The notes under the pieces are model-generated. The model had not been told where the DNA came from, made no database searches, and was given only the letters and a program-made list of their open reading frames with translations. A stretch of 27,889 bases of DNA, taken from positions 1 through 27,889 of the forward strand of contig JAWLEP010000034.1 in NCBI GenBank assembly GCA_041686025.1, given 5' to 3'. This DNA is from Candidatus Fermentibacteraceae bacterium (GTDB taxonomy: Bacteria > Fermentibacterota > Fermentibacteria > Fermentibacterales > JCC-6). Made by a program: the position numbers and the translations under genes. This document shows, piece by piece, positions 7,755 to 27,826 of the stretch. Numbering within the stretch: the first letter of the stretch is position 1; the number at the start of each line of letters is the position of its first letter.

Positions 7755-9260
7755 CTAGTTCCGCCTTCGGTCGGGCAGGTCCATCAGGGCGGTGTGGGTG
7801 GCCCTGAACCACCGGGGGGTCCGCTGGAGCGCGGCCGATACGACGGGTGAGCCCATCAGCTCTTCTGCTATGAACTCCCGCGCCTCCCTGCGAAGATCCC
7901 TTCCCTGCCAGAAGAATGGCCTGTACAGCTGCATCACGCCTTCCTCGCTGGAGTAGACGCCGGCCTCCACCTCCAGCTCCGCGGACATCTCGGGAGCCGA
8001 CCGCCAGGGCATGTTGAAGACCGAGAGGTTCAGGAAATCGAGGCTGTCCCCCGCCCTCTCCAGCAGCTCCCGGGAGAGGCGCCTGTCCTGCGGCTCCTCC
8101 CCGGGAAGCCCCAGAAGCATGTAGGCGTAGGTGCGTATGCCCTCGGCCTCCAGAGCCCTCAGAACCTCCAGCGAGACCGAAGGGTCGGTCCCCTTGCGGT
8201 GAAGCCCCATCAGCCCGGCGCTGCCGCTCTCCACTCCCAGCTGCAGCATGAGGCAGCCGGCCTCCGCCAGCCTGGCGGCCAGCCCCTCCTCCAGGAGGTC
8301 GGGCTCCGGCCTGGCGAAGCCGTAGAAGGAGACGGGAAGGCCGCTCAGAACCTCAGGAAGCTCGTTGAGGTAGGCCGGGGGCACCGCGGAATCCGCCAGG
8401 TGCAGCACGGGGCGGCGGGCCATGACCTCCGGAGGGACCCGCTCCAGGAAACGGCCCAGGCCCTCGATGGCGGCCCTGCGGAAGGGCTTCCACCTGTCGG
8501 GGCAGAAGAGGCAGCGTCCCCAGGCGCATCCGGTGGAGAGGGGCAGGGGTATCACCGGGCGGCTGCAGAGGTAATCGCGCTCCCCCAGGATCTCGGGCCA
8601 TGCCGGGGCCCTGGGCAGAGCGTCCTCTTCGCCCCCGGCCAGATGCGACCCGTCGGAGAGGTCCAGCTCGGGAACGGCCTCCGCCAGGTACTCGATTCCG
8701 CTGCCGGAGGAGGCAAGGCTCCTGGGCATCGACCCGCCCAGCAGGAAGTCGATTCCGGCCCTCCGCATCAGCAGGGCCAGCTCCAGGGCCGCCGGAAGCT
8801 GTGAGAGGTAGGAGACGGAGAGCAGGACCCTCTCCGCCGCCGCATCCCCTATTCGGGGCATGGCGTACTCCCGCAGGAAGCCGCTGTAGGGGGCATCGCC
8901 TTGGCCGGCGGAGGCCAGCAGCCGGGGCAGGGAGTGCAGACGCCCCGGAGGCGATACGTCCATCAGCGTCACCTTCCATCCCGGGGCGGTCTTAAGGCTG
9001 CGGAGCCTGGAGTGGAGCACTCCGGCGGCGCTGCGGTGCCGGTGGGGGTCGTAGAGACCGCTGCCGGCCTCGCCGCTGCCCAGGTACGCCAGCGGAGGCG
9101 CCGTGCGGCGGTCTTCCAGCAGGCCGAGAAGGAAGGGGGGCGAGAGGTCCAGAAAACCGGAGGGTGAGCCCATTCCGCAGAGTCCCGCCGCCAGAGCGAA
9201 CGGCCCGGCGGGGGGCTGCGCCGGCTGGGAGACGGGCGGGGATACCACCAGATAGCGCAT
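7755..9260 (-). CDS. Radical SAM protein with a probable (degenerate) N-terminal cobalamin-binding-type domain
   Basis: MRYLVVSPP start at ATG9260; SVSYLSQ and LLGGS in the N-terminal part; GCAWGRCLFC (Cx4Cx2C), LGVESGS and MLLGLPGE motifs typical of B12-binding radical SAM proteins. Confidence 0.8.
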   Translation of the reverse strand: MRYLVVSPPVSQPAQPPAGPFALAAGLCGMGSPSGFLDLSPPFLLGLLEDRRTAPPLAYLGSGEAGSGLYDPHRHRSAAGVLHSRLRSLKTAPGWKVTLMDVSPPGRLHSLPRLLASAGQGDAPYSGFLREYAMPRIGDAAAERVLLSVSYLSQLPAALELALLMRRAGIDFLLGGSMPRSLASSGSGIEYLAEAVPELDLSDGSHLAGGEEDALPRAPAWPEILGERDYLCSRPVIPLPLSTGCAWGRCLFCPDRWKPFRRAAIEGLGRFLERVPPEVMARRPVLHLADSAVPPAYLNELPEVLSGLPVSFYGFARPEPDLLEEGLAARLAEAGCLMLQLGVESGSAGLMGLHRKGTDPSVSLEVLRALEAEGIRTYAYMLLGLPGEEPQDRRLSRELLERAGDSLDFLNLSVFNMPWRSAPEMSAELEVEAGVYSSEEGVMQLYRPFFWQGRDLRREAREFIAEELMGSPVVSAALQRTPRWFRATHTALMDLPDRRRN

Positions 9261-9261
9261 G

Positions 9262-10701
9262 TCAGGGGGCTGCTTCCTCCGGGGGCAGGGCGAGGACCAC
9301 CTGCATGAGGTCACCGGTGGGAAGCGCCTCCTCCAGGTCCAGACCGCTTCGGCCGACCACCTCGTCGGCAGGCATGCCGCTCCAGTAATCCTTGACTACC
9401 CAGGCCCTGCCATCGGTTCTATCCATGCGGCCCAGCTCCCGTACGGCCTGCGGCGGTGTCATCACCCGGGCCTCGATCTCCGGAGCGTAGTAGCTCCAGA
9501 CCGTTCCGCTCTGCCTGTTGAGCACCAGTACCCGGTCGCCCTCCCGCCAACGGCGGCTAACCGCCGCAGCGGCGCTCCTCCAGTCTGCTCTGTGGTAGGG
9601 AAAGGATGGTATTCCGTAGTAAGCAACAAGGAGCGCAAGCATTCCCCCGGCAGTGGCAACTCCCGCCCAGCGCATGCGGGAGGCCGCCGCTCCCAGGACC
9701 AGTCCGGCCGGCAGCCACAGGACGGACAGCTGTCGGGCCCCCATGGGTTCGACCATCTGCGCGGCCAGGGGAATCACCGCTGTTGCGGCCGCCCAGAGGC
9801 GGACCCGGGGAGACAGCCTCTTCGCGGACAGGGCTCCGGCCGACACCAGGACACCGATGAGCAGAGCGTACAGAAGCAGCCGCTTCTTGCCCGCCAGCAG
9901 GGGCTCGGCCGGCCTCTGCAGCACGCCTCCGGGCATGAGCCTGGCCAGAACGACGGGGGTGTCCGATGCGGCTCTCGAGACATCCACGGAAGGGATGCCG
10001 GCCCGTTCCTCCCGGCTGGTCCTGCCGGCCATCTCGTCCCCCGAGGACAGGAGAATGGGAAGGGCCAGAGCGGCTATGGCAATTGCCGCTGAAGCGGGCA
10101 GCCACGGGCTGACCCTCCTCCGCCCGTTAACCGTTGCCCACAGCCCCAGTCCGGCCAGGGCGAACAGGCCGAAGAGCAGAGAGGTCCATACTCCCGCTGC
10201 CGCCACTGCCAGCATGGGCAGCAGCAGTCTCCTGCTGCCGCGCCAAACCTCCAGGGAGAGGGCGGCGAAGAGAATGCCCAGGCCCGCCAGCGTACCGTAT
10301 ACCCAGGCCTCCTGTCCGAGAGAGACCGCGTACGGAGCCAGGCCCCAGAACAGTCCGGCCCACAGGCCCGCACGCCTGCCCGCCAGCCTGGCCACAAGCA
10401 GCATCAGGGGCAGAACCGCCAGACCGGAGAGCAGTGCGGACGGAAGCCGAAGGGCGGCCTCGGAGCTTCCGAAGACGCTCATGGATGCCTTGACCAGCAG
10501 GAAGTGGAGGGGGGCATGAGGGATGGCGGCGGAGGGAAGCCCCAGTATCCGGTCCACCGGGAGTCGGGCCACTTCCAGGGCAAGGGCCTCGTCCAGCCAC
10601 AGGCTCTTGGATCCGATGGAGAACAGCCTGGCTGCCAGCGAAAGGGCCGTTGCCAGCCCGGCCTTCAGCAATGTGCCGCGTCTGGTGACCGGAAGAGCCA
10701 T
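9262..10701 (-). CDS. Multi-TM GT-C glycosyltransferase (ArnT/PMT, GT39/GT83-like)
   Basis: SKSLWLDEA first-loop motif, HAPLHFLL and SEAALRLPSAL; about 10-12 TM helices; C-terminal RADWRSAA extracytoplasmic domain. Confidence 0.8.
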   Translation of the reverse strand: MALPVTRRGTLLKAGLATALSLAARLFSIGSKSLWLDEALALEVARLPVDRILGLPSAAIPHAPLHFLLVKASMSVFGSSEAALRLPSALLSGLAVLPLMLLVARLAGRRAGLWAGLFWGLAPYAVSLGQEAWVYGTLAGLGILFAALSLEVWRGSRRLLLPMLAVAAAGVWTSLLFGLFALAGLGLWATVNGRRRVSPWLPASAAIAIAALALPILLSSGDEMAGRTSREERAGIPSVDVSRAASDTPVVLARLMPGGVLQRPAEPLLAGKKRLLLYALLIGVLVSAGALSAKRLSPRVRLWAAATAVIPLAAQMVEPMGARQLSVLWLPAGLVLGAAASRMRWAGVATAGGMLALLVAYYGIPSFPYHRADWRSAAAAVSRRWREGDRVLVLNRQSGTVWSYYAPEIEARVMTPPQAVRELGRMDRTDGRAWVVKDYWSGMPADEVVGRSGLDLEEALPTGDLMQVVLALPPEEAAP

Positions 10702-15070: not shown

Positions 15071-16638
<1,568 letters not shown>

Positions 16639-16772
16639 TAAGGAGACAAAGGTGTGCGTTTGGGGGCTTACGCTCTCGAACAGACCTTAGGTTGAGCGCA
16701 GACCGAGTAGGCTGCGCTTGTCTTCTCCCTCTAATAGAGCTTCGGCCTGATCCCATTCAGGCCCAGGACTAT

Positions 16773-16849
16773 GGGCCTGTAGCTCAGTTGGTCAGAGCGC
16801 ACGCCTGATAAGCGTGAGGTCACTAGTTCAACTCTAGTCAGGCCCACCA
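16773..16849 (+). tRNA. tRNA-Ile (anticodon GAT)
   Basis: GGGCCTG...CAGGCCC-A-CCA; anticodon arm CACGC-CT-GAT-AA-GCGTG; located in the 16S-23S spacer. Confidence 0.98.
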
Positions 16850-16864
16850 CAGCTTACTGGGCAT

Positions 16865-16940
16865 GGGGATGTAGCTCAGCTGGGAGAGCATCGGCTTTGC
16901 AAGCCGGAGGTCGCCGGTTCGAGCCCGGCCATCTCCACCA
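16865..16940 (+). tRNA. tRNA-Ala (anticodon TGC)
   Basis: GGGGATG...CATCTCC-A-CCA with a G3:U70 pair; anticodon arm TCGGC-TT-TGC-AA-GCCGG. Confidence 0.98.
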
Positions 16941-16976
16941 GCATGGGACAGGCAGACGGATCTTCTGCGAGGCAAT

Positions 16977-17008
16977 CGCGCAGCTCTTTGACATTTGTGC
17001 AGGGCAGA
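16977..17008 (+). promoter_or_regulatory. Spacer boxA and 5' arm of the 23S processing stem
   Basis: GCTCTTTGACA boxA; TCGCGCAGCTCTTTGACATTTGTGCAGG is near-perfectly complementary to CCTGCACAAATGTGAGAGAGCTGCGCGA (~20064-20091) after 23S. Confidence 0.75.
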
Positions 17009-17042
17009 CGTATCGAAACACCGCATCTGTAGGGCTTTGTGT

Positions 17043-20031
<2,989 letters not shown>

Positions 20032-20107
20032 CAAAGAGTCCGCAGGTGCGTTCGATGCCCTGTCCTGCACAAATGTGAGAGAGCTGCGCGACCACTCGCG
20101 CCGGTAT

Positions 20108-20223
<116 letters not shown>

Positions 20224-20232
20224 GTTCTTCGG

Positions 20233-20266
20233 AAGGCCCCCGGGCATTTGCCCGGGGGCCTTTTTT
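20233..20266 (+). terminator. Rho-independent terminator of the rrn operon
   Basis: GGCCCCCGGGC-ATTT-GCCCGGGGGCC hairpin followed by TTTTTT. Confidence 0.92.
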
Positions 20267-20292
20267 GTCCTTCTGCGGGTATTTCTTATGAT
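20265..20292 (+). promoter_or_regulatory. Possible promoter of the aminomutase cassette
   Basis: TTGTCC-N16-TATGAT in an AT-rich patch overlapping the terminator tail. Confidence 0.35.
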
Positions 20293-20354: not shown

Positions 20355-21908
20355 GTGATAACCGACGCCGACGTAAAGAAGATGATGGACCATTACGGAT
20401 ACTCCGATGAGGTCGCAAGGACCATCGAGAGGGAGCGACTGCTGCCCACCGGGCTGCTGAGCAGGCTGCAGGACAACCATCCGGAGCAGTCGGGTTTCGT
20501 GAGAACCCGGGATTTCATGTTCACCCAGCGGAAGAGGTATGCGGGAATAGAGGGCTTCCGCAGCATCGTCGACACCCTGAAGAAGACGGGGATCGAGATC
20601 GGCCATCTCGAGGAGCGCGAGCTCTTCATCAGGGTCTACCGGTTCATGGCCACCGACCACGTCCTGAATGCCATCAACTGGGACGACTTCGAGAACGATC
20701 CGCTGTTCAGCCTGGTCTTCCCGCAGCCGGGGATGATCAGGAAGGACACCGAGGCCGCCTACCTCGCCGCCGACACGGAGGAGGAGAGGCAGGAGATCGT
20801 CGACGGGTACATGGCCAGGACTAATCCCCACGGCTGCAACCAGCTGCTGAACAAGCCCTGGTTCGAGGACTCCGACGGGAGGGTGGAGTTCGTGGAGGGC
20901 AGCCAGCACAAGTACCCTCAGTGTGCCCTCGTTTTCGACAGCACCACGCAGGACTGCTTCGCGTTCTGCACCTATTGCTTCCGGCATGCCCAGGTCCGCG
21001 GCGACGAGGACATGTTCTGCCAGCGGGACCCCGGCCAGGTGCTTCAGTACCTGAAGCTGCACCCGGAGGCCACCGACATCCTCATCACCGGCGGCGACGC
21101 AGGCTTCATGCCGGTGGAGCGCCTCAGGGAGTACGTGGTGCCGATAATGGAGGACCCCGACCTCCGGCACGTACGAACTGTGCGTCTCGGGACCAGGATG
21201 CTCACCTACCTTCCCGAGATGGTCCTGTCGCGCGACTACGATGAGATGCTGGAGCTGTTCGACACCATGTACGAAAGCGGGCTGCAGCTGGCATGGATGG
21301 CCCATTTCTCTACGCCGCGGGAGGTCCTGAACCCTTCCACCATCGCCGCTGTCCGCCGGCTCCAGCGCCATCACGTGGTGATGCGCAGCCAGAGTCCGAT
21401 GATGGACCATGTCAGCCTCTTCCGCGACGAGGCCGGCAAGGTGGACATCGACCGCACCGCGGAGAACTGGGTCAACCTGGCCCTGGTCCTGGGAACGATG
21501 CACATCGGGTTCCACTCCATGTATCTCGCCCGGCCCACCGGGGAGCATCACTACTTCACCACGCCCCTGGCCGACGTGGCGAAGATCGCAGACAGGATCC
21601 ACCGGGACCTGGCCTCCATCTACCGTCCATCCAGGTACATCTCCATGACCTCCTCGGCGGGGAAGATCTCCCTGCTGGGAACCGTCGAGGCGGGCGGGGA
21701 GAAGGCGTTCGCGCTCAAGTTCACCCAGGGGCGGAACATGGAATGGATGGATGGAGTCTTCCTTGCGAAGTACGATGAAGAGCAGTGCAGCATCGACAAG
21801 CTCGAGCCGTTTGAGGGGCGGGAGTTCTTCTTCCGGCAGGACCAGCGGGACATCGAGGCAGCGCTGCTGAAGGCGCTGGAGGGACGGAAGTTCGCCGGAG
21901 ACGAGTGA
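20355..21908 (+). CDS. KamA-family radical SAM/PLP 2,3-aminomutase, substrate uncertain
   Basis: GSQHKYP, CFAFCTYCFR (C201/C205/C208, R210), ILITGGD, RLGTR, MAHF, SQSP and SAGK (candidate PLP lysine K437). GGGAG RBS before the GTG. Confidence 0.88.
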   Translation: MITDADVKKMMDHYGYSDEVARTIERERLLPTGLLSRLQDNHPEQSGFVRTRDFMFTQRKRYAGIEGFRSIVDTLKKTGIEIGHLEERELFIRVYRFMATDHVLNAINWDDFENDPLFSLVFPQPGMIRKDTEAAYLAADTEEERQEIVDGYMARTNPHGCNQLLNKPWFEDSDGRVEFVEGSQHKYPQCALVFDSTTQDCFAFCTYCFRHAQVRGDEDMFCQRDPGQVLQYLKLHPEATDILITGGDAGFMPVERLREYVVPIMEDPDLRHVRTVRLGTRMLTYLPEMVLSRDYDEMLELFDTMYESGLQLAWMAHFSTPREVLNPSTIAAVRRLQRHHVVMRSQSPMMDHVSLFRDEAGKVDIDRTAENWVNLALVLGTMHIGFHSMYLARPTGEHHYFTTPLADVAKIADRIHRDLASIYRPSRYISMTSSAGKISLLGTVEAGGEKAFALKFTQGRNMEWMDGVFLAKYDEEQCSIDKLEPFEGREFFFRQDQRDIEAALLKALEGRKFAGDE

Positions 21909-21942
21909 TCATCTCTGCACAGACTGCATCGTGAGGGGCAAC

Positions 21943-22653
21943 ATGATCGACAAGCAGGTGGAATCCGTTGCCGGGGCCGTGGACGACGTGCATGACGGCG
22001 CGACGGTGCTGATCGGCGGCTTCGGTGCGGCAGGCAGTCCCATCGAGCTGATCCACGCACTGATCGACCTCGGCGTGAAGGACCTGACGGTGGGGAGCAA
22101 CAACACCGGCAGCGGGCAGGTGGGGCTGGCCGCCCTGATCCGGAACGGTCAGGTATCCAAGATGATATGCTCGTTTCCCCGGACGGCGAACTCCACGGTC
22201 TTCCCCGAGCTCTACCGCGCCGGCAGGATTGACCTGGAGCTGGTCCCGCAGGGGACGCTGGCCGAACGGATTCGCGCCGGCGGCGCGGGCATTCCCGCGT
22301 TCTACACCCCGTCGTCCGTGGGGACGGTTCTGGCCGAGGGCAAGGAGACCCGCCGCTTCGACGGCCAGGATTACGTGATGGAGTACGGCCTCAGGGCGGA
22401 CTTCGCGCTGGTCAAGGCGAAGAGGGCCGACCGCTACGGCAACCTCGTCTACAACAAGACCGCGCGCAACTTCGGCCCCATCATGTGCACGGCGGCCGAG
22501 ACCGCCATCGTGCAGGTGGAGGAGGTCGTCCCCGCAGGCGGGATCGATCCCGAGTGCGTCGTGACTCCCGGAATCTTCGTCGACCGCGTCGTCGTGGTCA
22601 GGCAGCCGGCCCAGGAATCGGTGCTCGTGCAGGAGGGGCAGGTATACCCATGA
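21943..22653 (+). CDS. pcaI: 3-oxoacid CoA-transferase subunit A (3-oxoadipate CoA-transferase type)
   Basis: MIDK start after GAGGGG; DGATVLIGGFG, SNNTG, CSFPR (PcaI-type), PQGTLAERIRAGGAGIP, RNFGP and TPGIFVD. Confidence 0.88.
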   Translation: MIDKQVESVAGAVDDVHDGATVLIGGFGAAGSPIELIHALIDLGVKDLTVGSNNTGSGQVGLAALIRNGQVSKMICSFPRTANSTVFPELYRAGRIDLELVPQGTLAERIRAGGAGIPAFYTPSSVGTVLAEGKETRRFDGQDYVMEYGLRADFALVKAKRADRYGNLVYNKTARNFGPIMCTAAETAIVQVEEVVPAGGIDPECVVTPGIFVDRVVVVRQPAQESVLVQEGQVYP

Positions 22654-23354
22654 GCGACGGAAGAGGCTCCCCGAAGAAGGGATGGAGCAGGGAAGGCATG
22701 GCCAGGCGCCTGGCCGTGGACGTTCCCGACGGCTCCTACGTCAATCTGGGCATAGGCATGCCCGAGCTGGTGGCGCAGTTCCTGCCTTCCGACCGGGAGG
22801 TCCTGTACCACACCGAGAACGGCCTTCTGGGGATGGGCCCGCCGCCCCACCCCGACGGGGTCGACCCGGAGCTGATAAACGCCGGCAAGAAGCCGGTGAC
22901 CGCGATTCCGGGGGCCGCCTACTTCCACCACGCCGACAGCTTCACCATGATCCGCGGCGGCCACATAGACCTCTGTGTGCTGGGCGCCATGCAGGTCTCC
23001 GCCTCGGGCGACCTGGCCAACTGGTCCACAGGCGCGGAGGGTGCAATCCCGGCGGTGGGCGGCGCCATGGATCTGGTGCAGGGCGTTCGGACCATCTACG
23101 TGATTACCCGGCACGCCACGAAGAGGGGAGCCCCGAAGATCGTCTCGTATTGCACCTTCCCGCTTACCGGCAGGGCCTGTGTGGATCGCATCTACACCGA
23201 CCTCGCCGTTATGGACGTAGAGCCGGAGGGCCTGGTGGTTAGCGAGCTCGCCCCGGGCGTCAGCTTCGAGCAGGTCCGGGAGGCAACCGACGCCGACGTC
23301 ATCGCGGGGGAGGGGCTTGCAGACCCCGGCACCGGGAAGGGCGGTGGAGCATGA
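22650..23354 (+). CDS. pcaJ: 3-oxoacid CoA-transferase subunit B (3-oxoadipate CoA-transferase type)
   Basis: ATGA overlap with subunit A; YVNLGIGMP, HTENG (catalytic Glu), LINAGK, IRGGHID, GDLANW and VGGAMDL. Confidence 0.88.
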   Translation: MSDGRGSPKKGWSREGMARRLAVDVPDGSYVNLGIGMPELVAQFLPSDREVLYHTENGLLGMGPPPHPDGVDPELINAGKKPVTAIPGAAYFHHADSFTMIRGGHIDLCVLGAMQVSASGDLANWSTGAEGAIPAVGGAMDLVQGVRTIYVITRHATKRGAPKIVSYCTFPLTGRACVDRIYTDLAVMDVEPEGLVVSELAPGVSFEQVREATDADVIAGEGLADPGTGKGGGA

Positions 23355-24670
23355 CCCCCGAAGAGACCAGAAGTCGCGAGCTCTACGAACGAGCGCTGCA
23401 GGTGATGCCGGGGGGTGCCAGCCGGAACACCATCCTCAGGAAGCCCCACCCGCTGTATGTGGTGCGCGGCGAGGGCTGTCGCGTGTACGACGTGGAGGGG
23501 GTGGAGCGCATCGATTTCGCCAACAACATGGCCTCTCTGATCCACGGCCACGCTCACCCGGAGATAGTAGATGCGGTATCGGAGCAGCTCAGGCGGGGCA
23601 CCGCCTTCACCCTGGGCACGGAGCGGGAGATCGAGTACGCCGAGCACATGGTCGGCCGGGTCGACTCCTTCGACAAGATCCGCTTCGTCAACTCCGGCAC
23701 CGAGGCCGTGATGGGGTGTCTGAAGGCCTCGCGCGCCTTCACCGGCCGGCCGAAGATCGCCAAGGTGGAGGGAGCCTACCACGGCCTCTACGACTTCGCC
23801 GAGGTCAGCCAGACCGCGCAGCCGACAACCTGGGGTGACCCCCGTCGCCCCGCCAGCGTACCCGTTGCGTACGGTACGCCCCGGGGCGTGCTGGAAGACG
23901 TGATAATCATCCCCTACAACGACCCCGAGCGGGCGGTGGAGATACTGGACGACCGTGCCGACGAGATCGCCTGCGTGCTCGTGGACCCCGTACCGCACCG
24001 CGTAGGCCTCATCCCGGTGGAACAGGAGTTCGTGAGGACCCTCCGTGAATGGACGGAGAGGAACGGCTCGCTTCTGGTCTACGACGAGGTCATCACCCTC
24101 CGGGTCGCCTACGGAGGCGCCCAGGAGCGGCACGGGGTCCGTCCCGACCTGACGGCCCTGGGCAAGATGATAGGAGGCGGTTTCCCCGTGGGCGCCATCG
24201 CGGGACGGCGCGAGGTGATGGACGTGATGGACCCGCTGGCTCCTGCAGTCCTCTTCCCGCACTCGGGCACCTTCTCGGCGAATCCGATCACCATGACGGC
24301 GGGCCACACGGCCATGAGGCTCTACACCCCGGAGGCGATCCAGCGGATCAACGCCCTCGCCGAACGCGCCAGGAGGCAGATCGAGGACGCCATTCGGGTT
24401 GCCGGGGTTACGGCATGCGTCACGGGAGCGGGATCCATGCTGCGCGTGCACTTCAAGCCGGAGCCGCCGAGGGAGTACCGGACGTCCTACATGGCCTCCG
24501 ACGAGGCCGGGCTGATGGAGGCGTTCCTCGACTACCTGTTCGACAACGGCATTGTCCTGATCAACACCGGCACGGTCATGCTCTCCACGGTTATGACCGA
24601 GTACGAGATCGACACCCTGAGCGAGGCGATGCTGGGCGGATTACGGAAGGTCAGGGAGCTATACCCGTGA
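23351..24670 (+). CDS. Class III PLP aminotransferase, GSA-aminomutase-like fold, probably a beta-amino acid transaminase
   Basis: MPGGASR, RFVNSGTEA, EGAYHG, DEVIT, ALGKMIGGG (PLP lysine) and HSGTFSANP; ATGA overlap with pcaJ. Confidence 0.88.
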   Translation: MTPEETRSRELYERALQVMPGGASRNTILRKPHPLYVVRGEGCRVYDVEGVERIDFANNMASLIHGHAHPEIVDAVSEQLRRGTAFTLGTEREIEYAEHMVGRVDSFDKIRFVNSGTEAVMGCLKASRAFTGRPKIAKVEGAYHGLYDFAEVSQTAQPTTWGDPRRPASVPVAYGTPRGVLEDVIIIPYNDPERAVEILDDRADEIACVLVDPVPHRVGLIPVEQEFVRTLREWTERNGSLLVYDEVITLRVAYGGAQERHGVRPDLTALGKMIGGGFPVGAIAGRREVMDVMDPLAPAVLFPHSGTFSANPITMTAGHTAMRLYTPEAIQRINALAERARRQIEDAIRVAGVTACVTGAGSMLRVHFKPEPPREYRTSYMASDEAGLMEAFLDYLFDNGIVLINTGTVMLSTVMTEYEIDTLSEAMLGGLRKVRELYP

Positions 24671-24708
24671 CCTTCAGACAACACACCCTCTGACAGGAAG
24701 GTTCGAAC

Positions 24709-25917
24709 GTGCGAGACGCATTTATCTGCGATGCGACCCGGACCCCGGTAGGCAGGTACGGAGGGTCACTCTCGTCGGTTCGCACCGATGATCTCGCCAC
24801 CGTTCCCATCGTCGCGCTGATGGAGCGCCATGGGGAGCTCGATGGGGCGGGCGTCGACGAGGTGATCCTCGGCTGCGCAAACCAGGCCGGGGAGGACAAC
24901 CGCAACGTGGCACGCATGGCGCTGCTGCTGGCCGGCCTCCCCGAATCCGTTCCGGGGATCACGGTCAACCGGCTGTGTGCCTCGGGCATGTCCGCGGTGG
25001 GAATGGCCGCCAATGCGATAAGGGTGGGCGAGGGTGAGCTCATGGTGGCCGGAGGAGTTGAGAGCATGTCGCGCGCCCCAATCGTCATGGCCAAGGCCAC
25101 GAAGGCGTTCGACCGCAATGTGGAGGCCTACGACACCAGCATCGGCTGGCGGTTCGTCAACCCCAGGCTCCACCAGCGCTGCGGCACCGACTCCATGCCG
25201 GTCACGGCGGAGAACCTGGTGACGGAGTATGCCATAAGCCGCGAGGACCAGGACCGGTTCGCCTACTGGAGCCAGGAGAAGGCGGCGGCCGCCATGGCCG
25301 ATGGAAGGCTTGCCGAGGAGATCACGCCGGTAACCGTCCCCCGGCGGAAGGCCCCCCCCGTGGTGGTGGATACCGACGAGCACCCCCGGGACACATCCCC
25401 CGAGAAGCTCGCCGCCCTCAGGCCCCTGTTCGCCGACCCCGGCACGGTCACGGCGGGGAACGCCTCCGGTGTCAACGACGGCGCAGCCGCCCTCCTGGTG
25501 GCCTCGGGGAAAGCCGCGGAGGAGCACGGGCTGACGCCGCTGGTGCGCATAGTGGGCACGGCCTCCGCAGGAGTGCCGCCGCGGGTTATGGGCCTGGGCC
25601 CCGTGCCCGCCACCCGCAAGCTCCTCGATCGTCTGGGCATGTCCTTGGAGCAGATGGACTTAATCGAGCTCAACGAGGCTTTCGCCGCTCAGGCTCTGGC
25701 CTGCATCCGCCAGCTGGGTCTGGCCGACGACGACCCGCGGATAAACCCCCTCGGCGGAGCCATCGCCCTGGGGCACCCGCTGGGCATGAGCGGCGCCCGG
25801 ATCGTGACCTCGGCCGTTCACCAGCTGCGCCGCACCGGGGGCCGCTATGCGCTCTGCACCCTCTGCGTGGGCGTGGGCCAGGGCGTGGCCATGGTGCTGG
25901 AGAGGGTGGAGCAGTGA
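24709..25917 (+). CDS. pcaF: Acetyl-CoA C-acyltransferase (thiolase), 3-oxoadipyl-CoA thiolase PcaF/PaaJ type
   Basis: [54 protein letters not shown] and CVGVGQG; GTG start after GGAAGG. Confidence 0.88.
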
Positions 25918-26297
25918 GCGGGACCGACCACGTCACCGACCTGGGCATGGTCCCGGTGGGATTCGTGGACGGCGAGTACGTCGTCGAGCTCGACCTCGAG
26001 GAGCGCCATCTCAACATCGGGGGCATTGCCCACGGCGGCATCTACTGCAGTCTGCTGGACACCGCAATGGCAAGGTCGTTCATCAAATCGGTGTCTGACA
26101 CGGGCCTTCCCGCGGTGACGCTGGAGATGAAGGTCAACTTCCTGGGGGCGGCAGGCGGCGGCAAGCTCACCGCCCGCGGGAGGGTGGTGGCGAAGACCAG
26201 GCGCACCGTGCTCGTCGAGGGCCGCGTGGAGGACGGGGAGGGCCGGCTCCTGGCCCGGGCCTCGGCAACGATGATGAAGACCTCCAGGCAGGGCTGA
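25914..26297 (+). CDS. PaaI-family hotdog-fold acyl-CoA thioesterase
   Basis: [31 protein letters not shown] and [14 protein letters not shown] overlap with the thiolase stop. Confidence 0.9.
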
Positions 26298-26338
26298 CCA
26301 CCTCCGCGCCGGACTTGCCTAGAGACTCTGCTGCGCAG

Positions 26339-26380
26339 CATCCGCTGCAACTCCGAACACGGAAGTCAAGCCCTCCAGTG
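26339..26380 (+). repeat. Degenerate direct copy of an internal 5S rRNA segment
   Basis: 26352-26378 TCCGAACACGGAAGTCAAGCCCTCCAG versus 20146-20172 TCCGAACACGGAAGTTAAGCCCTCCAG (26/27). The ungapped match extends to 35/42 over 26339-26380 versus 20133-20174. Confidence 0.9.
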
Positions 26381-26505
26381 GCTCAGCCCAGGGGTATTCC
26401 ATCGTCGCCTGCAGAAGTGACTGAACCGGTTGGGTGCTTTTCCTCCGTTTTCGGTGTATTCTCTCGTACACGGCTCGGAATGAACACCGGGGAGGTAACT
26501 CGAAC

Positions 26506-27507
26506 ATGATGCTCATACTGGCGCTTCTGGCGTTTCCGTGGCCCGTGGAGGGTACCGGAGATCTTCACGCCATCGAGCTGATACCGTTTGGTGAGGGAAT
26601 AGCGGCAACGGGCCATGCCGGCAGCAGGCTGCTGGTTCTGGACGGCGAGCTGCGGCCGGCCCTGGACCTGACGGCCGAAGAGCTGGGGGTGGACTGGTTC
26701 AGGTCCATAGCGGCCGATCCTGCTGAAGGTGATCTCTGGGTGCTGGCCGAGGATGCGGGACCGTTCCTGTTCGGGTTCGACCGGGAGACGCTGGAGGATA
26801 CCGGCGGATATCGGGCGGAGCAGATAAGCAACCCGGTGGTAGACGGGTCCGGCCGCCTCTGGTTCTCTTCGGACGGCAACCTGTACAGGGACTTCGTGGA
26901 TATCGGTTTGCCGGTGTGTACCAACGGCCTGGCGGTGAGCGCCGACGGTGAGCAGCTGGCATGGGTGGACGGCGAGGACCGGGTCTGGAGCGCAAAGGTA
27001 TCCGACTTCGAGCCGGAGGTGGTGGAGGAGAGGCGCTCCATGGCCCCCTTCTACCTGCCCACCTCACCCGTTCTTGTGGTTCCGCTACTGGAGGGCGGCT
27101 TCGCCATGCACATGCCCGACGGCACGGCGCTGGAGATAGAGGAGGGCATGCAGCCGTCCTGGTGCCCGGTGCCCGAAGGTGTGGTCTACTGTATCTCCAG
27201 GGACGATGGCCACAACATCACCGAGTCCGACATCTACCTGGCTGCGATTACCGGGGAAGTGCTCAGGCTGACGGAGACTCCGGAGGCCCTGGAGACCAAT
27301 CCCTCGGTCTACGACGAGGGCCTCGTGGCGGTGGACGCCGCCAACGGCTGCCTTGTTGTGGTCCCCGACGACTGCCTGCCGAGGGCTTCGGGATACAGAG
27401 CCCCGGCGCCGGCCCACGCCGGCAGCTTTGCGCAGGAGTTGTCTCTACTCCTGGATGCGCTGCTCAGCCCGCGGAATCCGGGTAGTCCCTGCCGGCCTGT
27501 ACTGTAG
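26506..27507 (+). CDS. Exported TolB-like beta-propeller protein
   Basis: GGAGGT RBS; signal-like MMLILALLAFPWP; PD40-like segments LAVSADGEQLAW, PSWCPVPEGVVY and DIYLAAITGEVLRLTETPEALETNPS. Confidence 0.7.
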   Translation: MMLILALLAFPWPVEGTGDLHAIELIPFGEGIAATGHAGSRLLVLDGELRPALDLTAEELGVDWFRSIAADPAEGDLWVLAEDAGPFLFGFDRETLEDTGGYRAEQISNPVVDGSGRLWFSSDGNLYRDFVDIGLPVCTNGLAVSADGEQLAWVDGEDRVWSAKVSDFEPEVVEERRSMAPFYLPTSPVLVVPLLEGGFAMHMPDGTALEIEEGMQPSWCPVPEGVVYCISRDDGHNITESDIYLAAITGEVLRLTETPEALETNPSVYDEGLVAVDAANGCLVVVPDDCLPRASGYRAPAPAHAGSFAQELSLLLDALLSPRNPGSPCRPVL

Positions 27508-27541
27508 GTGCGTTTCGGTACTGATCAACCCGGGAGCGATG

Positions 27542-27826
27542 ATGAAAGGCAAGATCTACAAGCGCAGCGATGACATGGAACTTCGTGAGGTGGGCGCCGA
27601 GCTGATTCTGATCCCAGTGGCCGCCAGCGCCGAAGACACCGATAGCATCTACGTCCTCAACGAGACCGCCGCCGCCGCCTGGGACCTCTTCGACGGTGTC
27701 CTGACTCTTCGGGAGATGGCGGAAGAGATAGCACAGGGATTCGAGGTGACCCCGGAGAGGGCGCTGGAGGACCTGGAGCTGTACGTCGAAGAGCTCCTGG
27801 CCGCGGGGGCTCTGGAGGAGGTCTGA
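27542..27826 (+). CDS. PqqD-family protein (stand-alone RiPP recognition element-like)
   Basis: REVGAELILIP, IYVLNETAAAAWDLFDG, EIAQGFEVTPERALEDL and LLAAGAL; GGGAG RBS. ATG27539 is an alternative start. Confidence 0.85.
   Translation: MKGKIYKRSDDMELREVGAELILIPVAASAEDTDSIYVLNETAAAAWDLFDGVLTLREMAEEIAQGFEVTPERALEDLELYVEELLAAGALEEV

Follow-up and report, generated by a model that had tools for sequence, protein, structure and literature searches.

Closest described systems

A cluster of six genes at positions 20355-26297 of a 27,889-nucleotide contig from a Candidatus Fermentibacteraceae bacterium (JAWLEP010000034.1; the entire contig is hereafter called the window) encodes relatives of enzymes from several described systems. 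The first gene product is related to lysine 2,3-aminomutase (LAM or KamA; Protein Data Bank (PDB) entry 2A5H) and to other members of the KamA family, such as AblA, EpmB, and the glutamate and arginine 2,3-aminomutases. Shared features include the CxxxCxxC motif, the Arg residue that follows it, a GGD motif, and the position of the lysine for pyridoxal phosphate (PLP). However, the protein is only ~21% identical to bona fide AblA, is ~100 residues longer, carries Arg and Ser/Thr in place of Asp293 and Asp330 of LAM, belongs to a separate long-branch clade, and is never located beside kamD in the loci examined.

In the lysine fermentation described by Perret et al. (2011, PMC3149608), Kat acts after KamA, KamDE, Kdd, and Kce and, according to the sections of that report consulted, accepts only coenzyme A (CoA) or NAC thioesters of C4 units. 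Comparison with Kat, which was made by description only, reveals a similar HemL-like class III transaminase beside a thiolase, acting downstream of an aminomutase to convert a beta-aminoacyl compound to a 3-oxoacyl compound. Unlike in the Kat system, KamD was not found in the genome that carries our cluster, and its transaminase retains an Arg residue proposed to hold a free carboxylate.

The remaining enzymes resemble PcaIJ and PcaF (CatIJF) of the beta-ketoadipate pathway. The thiolase passes the PcaF model TIGR02430, and CoA-transferase subunit A is 59-65% identical to cat/pca copies and shares their CS[FY]PR motif. In contrast to that pathway, the cluster includes no ring-cleavage genes and no IclR regulator, and the aminomutase and transaminase would feed the final steps. 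The aerobic lysine route of Pseudomonas putida passes through 2-aminoadipate by way of the transaminase PP_4108 and HglS, a DUF1338 enzyme, and the portions of the preprint consulted (bioRxiv 10.1101/450254) describe deamination at C2 and loss of CO2 via an Fe(II) enzyme. Our proposed substrate is the same, and DUF1338 genes reside near the cluster in three loci (L010, L062, and L119; labels beginning with L denote individual loci and those beginning with G individual genomes, G000 being the genome of this contig). However, the route we propose would keep all six carbons and would need no oxygenase.

Five of the six genes form an operon that is widespread and real, and for which we found no published description. 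This negative is weak, since the search covered few subscription papers. The function that we judge probable, based on the sequence evidence below, is the conversion of 2-aminoadipate to 3-aminoadipate, 3-oxoadipate, and 3-oxoadipyl-CoA, which would then be split into succinyl-CoA and acetyl-CoA.

A five-gene operon found across many phyla

The G000 genome is 2.70 Mb, 94.75% complete, and has a GC content of 66.9%. The six open reading frames (ORFs) share one orientation and begin right after a ribosomal RNA (rRNA) operon (15071-20224, where 20224 is the end of the 5S gene). Three junctions are stop/start overlaps of 4 nucleotides each, and the two others are gaps of 34 nucleotides (to the ATG at 21943) and 38 nucleotides. 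This layout had been correctly described in the original prediction, an annotation made from the letters of the window. The genes are as follows.

20355..21908, plus strand: radical S-adenosylmethionine (SAM)/PLP 2,3-aminomutase, proposed 2-aminoadipate 2,3-aminomutase; 517 amino acids, from a clade without a name whose members have ~520-550 amino acids
21943..22653, plus strand: 3-oxoacid CoA-transferase subunit A, PcaI type; open from GTG 21931, with ATG 21943 the likelier start
22650..23354, plus strand: 3-oxoacid CoA-transferase subunit B, PcaJ type; E56 invariant in 87/87
23351..24670, plus strand: class III (GSAM-fold, for glutamate-1-semialdehyde aminomutase) transaminase, putative beta-amino-acid type; Aminotran_3, with K272 and R377 invariant in 83/83
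24709..25917, plus strand: 3-oxoadipyl-CoA thiolase PcaF; above the TIGR02430 and NF006551 cut-offs
25914..26297, plus strand: accessory hotdog-fold thioesterase; above the TIGR00369 cut-off

A search for the aminomutase family yielded 1329 proteins at E <= 1e-30 among 8000 scored candidates, a number that probably includes the sister family introduced below, and the best 120 homologues are 58-93% identical to the query. Among GTDB genomes, 501 stretches were confirmed, and gene order was counted in the best 80 of these. All five genes stand in the order mutase, transferase A, transferase B, transaminase, thiolase in 58 of the 80 loci; in 13 others the series is truncated where the contig or locus ends, and 9 loci deviate. 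Five of the deviating loci are from Colwellia, where the mutase gene is located apart from the others, and the other four genes are kept together elsewhere in both Colwellia genomes checked. A further 20 loci from Bacteroidales include 19 with the complete order and one that is cut, and two of these loci have insertions before the transaminase gene. Complete operons span many phyla, and the frequency of the intact order in both sets (58/80 and 19/20) establishes that the grouping is not due to chance. Thus, homologues of the mutase do co-occur with these genes, and the expectation that the set recurs across taxa was borne out for five members.

The sixth gene lies outside this fixed core. Thioesterase orthologues (47-88% identity) adjoin the operon in only 11 of the 80 loci, either upstream or downstream, and in none of the 20 further Bacteroidales loci, and a profile search of the 80 loci gave no further copies. 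The gene is therefore accessory, and the earlier proposal that six genes form a closed route must be reduced to five. In addition, its label as PaaI was rejected, since the protein scores 41.2 bits against a cut-off of 118.9 for TIGR02286 (PaaI), whereas it exceeds the cut-off of the generic hotdog model TIGR00369.

Carriers of the operon are in many cases marine or saline organisms, and culturable ones include Shewanella, Photobacterium, and Motiliproteus. A divergent LysR gene is present in many of the proteobacterial loci, and an IclR regulator is not among the operon neighbors. Contigs of 151-573 nucleotides that map to all five core genes, many with 0-1 differences from the operon, were recovered from four metatranscriptome runs of two studies that carry a salt lake label. 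Thus, the organism and its operon are present in RNA libraries, although DNA carry-over is possible and transcription is not implied. No contig covers positions 26066-27000 in the four runs, which cannot show that the thioesterase gene is silent.

An aminomutase clade that lacks the lysine-binding aspartates

The operon mutase has no Pfam match and falls below all six NCBIfam cut-offs for the KamA family. It scores 68.2 bits (cut-off 525.4) with TIGR03820 (KamA/LAM), 68.6 (cut-off 199.2) with TIGR00238 (KamA family), and 52.5 (cut-off 650) with TIGR04368 (glutamate 2,3-aminomutase). These scores rule against a classical KamA identity. Thus, the original assignment to the KamA family stands in the sense that the protein is KamA-like, but not as a match to Pfam or to the family model TIGR00238. 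The only PDB match is LAM itself (2A5H, E 3e-12), confined to residues 165-347 of the operon protein, and the ESM Atlas offers only the cluster names 'hypothetical' and 'lysine 2,3-aminomutase' for this protein. A tree built from 35 proteins unites 22 family members in a single long-branched clade (support 100/100), whose sister is a family of ~445 amino acids. The mutase therefore represents its own clade within the KamA superfamily, as judged from sequence.

Residues of the mutase were placed on the 2A5H structure by sequence alignment through an AblA protein. C201, C205, C208, and R210 correspond to C125, C129, C132, and R134 of 2A5H and are invariant in 100 of 100 homologues. The same is true for K437, which corresponds to K337, a residue in the C-terminal GK motif of LAM that we take to be the PLP-binding lysine. 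However, the position of Asp293 is occupied by Arg (R393) and that of Asp330 by Ser or Thr (residue 430), each in 100 of 100 homologues. We assume that Asp293 and Asp330 of LAM bind the side-chain amine of lysine, and the loss of both argues against ordinary lysine mutase activity.

This loss bears directly on one alternative, in which the mutase acts first on lysine (or on the semialdehyde or saccharopine), neighboring enzymes remove the epsilon-amino group of beta-lysine, and 3-aminoadipate is reached later. The Glu and Asp residues that flank the Arg in actinobacterial members of the sister family are likewise missing in 100 of 100 homologues. However, the sister family is annotated as lysine 2,3-aminomutase and has the same Arg. 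We consider a lysine-first mechanism unlikely, and return to it where neighboring genes are described.

A second alternative begins with glutamate, which would be converted to beta-glutamate, 3-oxoglutarate, and 3-oxoglutaryl-CoA, and then to malonyl-CoA plus acetyl-CoA, or by decarboxylation to acetoacetate. A basic residue at the Asp293 position would suit any dicarboxylate, and glutamate 2,3-aminomutases are a known enzyme type (reported in the sections consulted of bioRxiv 2025.11.21.689712). Moreover, a sister-family gene is located in a macrolactam-like polyketide synthase (PKS) cluster that resembles the setting of IdnL4, as far as the consulted parts of PMC11284099 describe it. Glutamate would also be available in every carrier of the operon, and L044 has a GadC-like antiporter gene directly behind its operon. 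Against these points, the mutase falls far short of the TIGR04368 cut-off, and its thiolase and CoA-transferase partners are of the 3-oxoadipate types. Its Arg and Ser/Thr residues also differ from Lys and Asn at the two positions, which is presumably the pattern of glutamate 2,3-aminomutases, and the same genome carries another KamA-family gene that does have Lys and Asn there. Furthermore, a glutamate substrate leaves unexplained the lysine-catabolic neighbors and the occurrence of saccharopine dehydrogenase in 23 of 23 carriers, both described below. We therefore give this possibility little credence.

The other KamA-family gene of G000 (L091 1294-3180; G000:C38) codes for 629 amino acids with a long N-terminal extension. 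It is above the cut-off for TIGR00238 and below that for TIGR04368.

The sister family is found in Bacteroidota and Actinomycetota and is the nearest clade to the operon mutases, with 32-39% identity and Arg at the Asp293 position. It differs by carrying FRW[PA]Q where operon mutases carry FRHAQ, and by an Asp or Asn after the Arg. In the loci viewed, its genes are located alone or in clusters for PKS or nonribosomal peptide synthetase, and it exhibits no link to saccharopine dehydrogenase. IdnL4-like enzymes possibly belong to this family. One member resides on an Amycolatopsis plasmid (L143 4990-17194) among genes for MaoC dehydratases, CoA ester lyases, a CoA transferase, and a Glu/Leu/Phe/Val dehydrogenase. 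This is a different aminomutase cluster that is possibly catabolic.

Partner enzymes of the 3-oxoadipate type

The labels originally given to the CoA-transferase subunits, the class III aminotransferase, and the thiolase hold in profile searches. Subunit A scores 359.6 with TIGR02429 (cut-off 128.5) and subunit B scores 300.2 with TIGR02428 (cut-off 243.55), although both models also cover ScoAB. Subunit A is 59% identical to the copy in an Acinetobacter catA-catM-catC-pcaF-pcaD cluster and 65% identical to that in a Rhizobium IclR-pcaF cluster, and the CS[FY]PR motif it shares with cat/pca copies is lacking in the aligned solved chains of the ScoA type. The thiolase scores 650.3 with TIGR02430 (cut-off 597) and 677.5 with NF006551 (cut-off 605), models that may not distinguish PcaF from near paralogues like PaaJ, and its best PDB matches include the beta-ketoadipyl-CoA thiolase 6PCA (E 5e-162). 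Thus, by their sequences, the thiolase and CoA-transferase are of the 3-oxoadipate type.

The transaminase scores 350.6 with TIGR00713 (HemL; cut-off 527.3), and its identity as the HemL glutamate-1-semialdehyde aminomutase was rejected. Its best PDB matches are StoTA, the omega-transaminase of S. thermophilus (6K8H, E 2e-119), ForI (6SSD, E 9e-111), MesAT (2YKU), and VpAT (4AO9). The invariant residue R25 aligns with R36 of StoTA, a free beta- and gamma-amino-acid transaminase in which R36 is proposed to hold the substrate carboxyl group (PMC10589169, sections consulted). Where StoTA has Ser, the operon enzyme instead carries a basic residue (position 30; Arg in 71 of 83), and the portions of the literature consulted report no activity of StoTA, MesAT, VpAT, or ForI on 3-aminoadipate. 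Given the match between R25 and R36, and the restriction of Kat to thioesters, we infer that transamination precedes CoA activation.

The best solved relative of the transaminase takes beta-phenylalanine and beta-leucine, which would suit a route from phenylalanine to benzoate plus acetyl-CoA, or from leucine to isobutyrate plus acetyl-CoA, with the acid released by the thioesterase. Genes for methylcrotonyl-CoA carboxylase and 3-hydroxy-3-methylglutaryl (HMG)-CoA lyase are indeed found upstream of the operon in L069. However, such leucine-catabolism genes occur in only this one locus of 80, and benzoate or branched-chain genes do not recur in the 242 flanking proteins scanned. The argument for benzoate had drawn on the PaaI label, which fails, and the thioesterase is absent from 69 of the 80 loci. 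The invariant Arg predicted for the mutase pocket also fits poorly with these substrates. We consider phenylalanine and leucine, both named in the original prediction, to be extremely improbable.

Lysine-related genes beside the operon

Most of the 305 representatives of flanking proteins were scanned, with 242 proteins compared to Pfam and 56 proteins, some from G000, compared to NCBIfam. Enzymes that lead from lysine to 2-aminoadipate adjoin the operon in 12 of the 80 loci, compared with a rough chance expectation of ~0.2-1.6 loci for 783 kb of flank. These upstream neighbors represent three unrelated entry enzymes from at least six lineages, although the 12 loci are partly kin (five Desulfuromonadales or other deltaproteobacterial genomes and two Cloacimonadota). 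Piperideine-6-carboxylate dehydrogenase (NF050084) is present in nine loci, in four of which it immediately precedes the mutase gene or is one gene removed from it; four copies are above the cut-off and the others were called by tblastn at 52-87%. Saccharopine dehydrogenase is found in L017, L035, and L053, and the last two loci also carry the reductase half, whose best PDB matches are fungal saccharopine reductase and human AASS. In L010, a lysine 6-transaminase (above the TIGR03251 cut-off), an NF050084 dehydrogenase, and a probable DUF1338 gene are arranged divergently from the operon. No ring-cleavage or lactone enzymes were found among the 242 flanking proteins scanned.

The lysine-first alternative would explain these same neighbors and the genome profile below. 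It would also explain carriers that have no obvious source of aminoadipate, but only if these have unrecognised epsilon-deaminases. Against it, the neighboring dehydrogenases and transaminase pass ordinary equivalog cut-offs.

Genome-wide profiles

Among 301 Bacteroidales genomes, 23 carry the mutase family and 48 carry the sister family only. Saccharopine dehydrogenase is present in all 23 carriers versus 145 of the 278 others (Fisher p 8e-7), and in 21 of 21 when the two seed genomes are left out, whereas genomes with only the sister family exhibit no link (30/48 versus 115/230). KamD (PF09043), a marker of classical and Kat-type lysine fermentation, is found in 0 of 23 carriers versus 42 of 278 others (p 0.054). 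These p values overstate the case because kin are not independent. Lysine 6-transaminase occurs in 0 of the 301 genomes and is uninformative there.

G000 itself has a lysine 6-transaminase (649 versus a cut-off of 521) and an NF050084 dehydrogenase (767 versus 730), both on other contigs. KamD (0/1), HglS, the 2-oxoglutarate dehydrogenase E1 subunit, intradiol dioxygenase (PF00775), COX1, and lysA were not found in this 94.75% complete genome; Kdd, Kce, Kal, Kat, and 2-oxoacid:ferredoxin oxidoreductase lay outside the genome-wide search. The lack of KamDE and ring-cleavage genes, which had been remarked for the window, thus extends to the whole genome for KamD and intradiol dioxygenase. The set of genes not found in G000 fits an anaerobic organism in which aminoadipate has no other obvious outlet. 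NF050084 is present in both carriers among 31 relatives and in 6 of the 29 others. Most of the relatives that have lysine 6-transaminase lack the semialdehyde dehydrogenase and the operon.

The absence of lysA raises the possibility that the operon runs in reverse, from succinyl-CoA and acetyl-CoA to 3-oxoadipate and 3-aminoadipate, the latter serving as an osmolyte or as a precursor of 2-aminoadipate and then of lysine via the saccharopine pair. The lysA gene is also not found in G057 and G027, and in G027 both saccharopine enzymes are in line with the operon and there is no NF050084 match. Moreover, the many marine or saline carriers would suit an osmolyte, a role known for beta-amino acids (bioRxiv 2025.11.21.689712, sections consulted). 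However, lysA is not clearly scarcer in carriers (5 of 23 versus 18 of 57 controls above the cut-off; 15 of 23 versus 47 of 57 for any match), and Shewanella has the gene. The commonest neighbor is an oxidative semialdehyde dehydrogenase, and the scanned flanks showed no aminoadipate reductase. Thiolase condensation is also uphill, which weighs against a biosynthetic direction. This reading is very unlikely in our estimation.

The marine gammaproteobacteria carry DUF1338 in four of four tested, and in three it adjoins an AstD-type dehydrogenase (two of the three scored). In the Shewanella and Photobacterium carriers (L107, L108, and L110), the DUF1338 gene is located directly after astD. This pairing hints at a possible supply of aminoadipate from lysine through the arginine succinyltransferase enzymes.

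A proposed route for lysine breakdown

The core operon probably represents the lower half of a pathway for lysine breakdown that is independent of O2 and B12. Genes elsewhere would convert lysine to 2-aminoadipate semialdehyde by a lysine 6-transaminase, the saccharopine pair, or a lysine-dehydrogenase-like enzyme, and oxidation would then yield L-2-aminoadipate. The radical-SAM/PLP enzyme would use KamA-type chemistry to relocate the C2 amino group to C3 and so form 3-aminoadipate, which the class III transaminase would accept in free form and convert to 3-oxoadipate. The PcaIJ-type transferase would move CoA from succinyl-CoA onto 3-oxoadipate to produce 3-oxoadipyl-CoA and succinate, and PcaF would split the former into succinyl-CoA and acetyl-CoA. 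From 2-aminoadipate onward, the net reaction would be 2-aminoadipate + 2-oxo acid + CoA to succinate + acetyl-CoA + amino acid. The calculated balance for lysine is succinate + acetate + 2 NH3 + 6 [H], such that this would be an oxidative branch that needs an electron sink.

We infer all substrates and the direction of the reactions from the genes, families, order, co-occurrence, and conserved residues observed. The general logic of the original prediction, in which an alpha-amino acid becomes a beta-amino acid, a 3-oxo acid, and a CoA ester that is thiolyzed, finds support in synteny, neighboring genes, and the genome profile, as does 2-aminoadipate, the substrate it named first. Together with the revisions noted above, its interpretation is partly supported.

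Several observations weigh against a 2-aminoadipate substrate. Since the sister family has the same Arg, R393 is no specific sign of a dicarboxylate, and the idea that Asp293 to Arg is a substrate-specific charge swap was downgraded. Three of the nine loci with deviating gene order lack the thiolase gene, and one has only the transaminase and mutase genes. The queries used for flanks were picked after the loci had been seen, no upstream enzyme is located beside the operon in the 20 extra Bacteroidales loci, and the leucine-catabolism genes of L069 suit another substrate. NF050084 is not enriched in Bacteroidales carriers (10/23 versus 79/278; p 0.15), and a search of 50 carrier genomes, corresponding to 50 of the 80 loci, found it in only 25. 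None of NF050084, TIGR03251, and PF16653 is found in 8 of these 50 carriers. Three of the eight are Shewanella isolates and two are Colwellia genomes, cases that a glutamate substrate would account for, and a reductase query found nothing in four of the eight. Two further PF16653 matches are, we presume, probably a polyamine-pathway dehydrogenase. Finally, the lysine 6-transaminase of G000 discriminates nothing, because TIGR03251 is found in 30 of the 31 genomes around it.

Surroundings of the operon and related loci

Three additional features of the window flank the operon.

20231..20272, plus strand: terminator-like hairpin and T run after the 5S rRNA gene, which sets the rRNA operon apart from the operon
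20265..20292, plus strand: weak sigma-70-like promoter match (9/12)
26352..26378, plus strand: 27-nucleotide copy of part of the 5S rRNA gene (20146-20172), 26/27 identical, 55 nucleotides 3' of the thioesterase gene

The promoter match is not evidence of function because one was found versus 0.8 expected by chance, and the scan of the locus for promoters and terminators gave a result at chance level. The 5S fragment is the sole other copy in the genome. It is possibly an old recombination scar and is probably outside the pathway. Farther downstream (26434-27826) are a gene for a protein of ~330 amino acids that lacks annotation and, close to where the contig ends, a PqqD-family gene that stands alone. 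A second radical-SAM gene is present in the window at 7755-9314 on the minus strand.

Among the 31 relatives, only G000 and G057 carry the mutase family, in each case behind an rRNA operon. In G051, from the same genus, only the first 49 mutase codons are left (L156 2351-2497; 80% identity), also behind the rRNA operon and separated from it by an inserted ORF of 482 amino acids. The 14 kb read does not contain the rest of the operon, and its similarity to the window picks up again at the PqqD-like gene. A recent insertion at the 5S gene was considered and rejected, given the G057 operon at the same site, the G051 remnant, and a GC content at third codon positions (0.86-0.91) similar to that of adjacent genes.

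No plasmid representatives of the mutase clade were found (25 records, all < 60%). The closest CoA-transferase subunits annotated on plasmids (72% and 67% identical to subunits A and B of the window) are from pTM2 of Tistrella mobilis (L139 599-8391), where they adjoin an NF050084 piperideine-6-carboxylate dehydrogenase and DUF1338, with no mutase gene in the 14.7 kb read. This cluster is perhaps an operon remnant. The locus with only transaminase and mutase genes (L055 4283-10373) adjoins a trimethyllysine-dioxygenase-like gene and an SDR gene (short-chain dehydrogenase/reductase), and this two-gene variant may act on another substrate. In Motiliproteus and Halopseudomonas (L016, L024, L068, and L073), the operon is accompanied by genes for a BCCT transporter, a PreA-like flavoprotein, the thioesterase, and a class I aminotransferase.

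Implications

The operon consists of enzymes of known types, and the activity of its mutase is probably new. On balance, we favor the view that the mutase is a 2-aminoadipate 2,3-aminomutase, and that it joins a distinct O2- and B12-independent lysine route to the end steps of the beta-ketoadipate pathway. If so, the small group of radical-SAM aminomutases would gain a new substrate class, and anaerobes a new route for lysine carbon, with succinate and acetate as products and all of the carbon retained. The route would be present in hundreds of species of sediments, saline lakes, digesters, and marine facultative anaerobes. It would replace the KamDE pathway where the operon is present, and 3-aminoadipate would be a common but unrecognised metabolite. 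In facultative bacteria it would serve as the anoxic partner of the HglS route, and it would account for pcaIJF-like genes in many anaerobes that do not degrade aromatics. Hundreds of annotations as 'lysine 2,3-aminomutase' or 'hypothetical' would be corrected. The link from 2-aminoadipate to 3-oxoadipate would also be of interest for making adipate-type compounds and chiral beta-amino acids.

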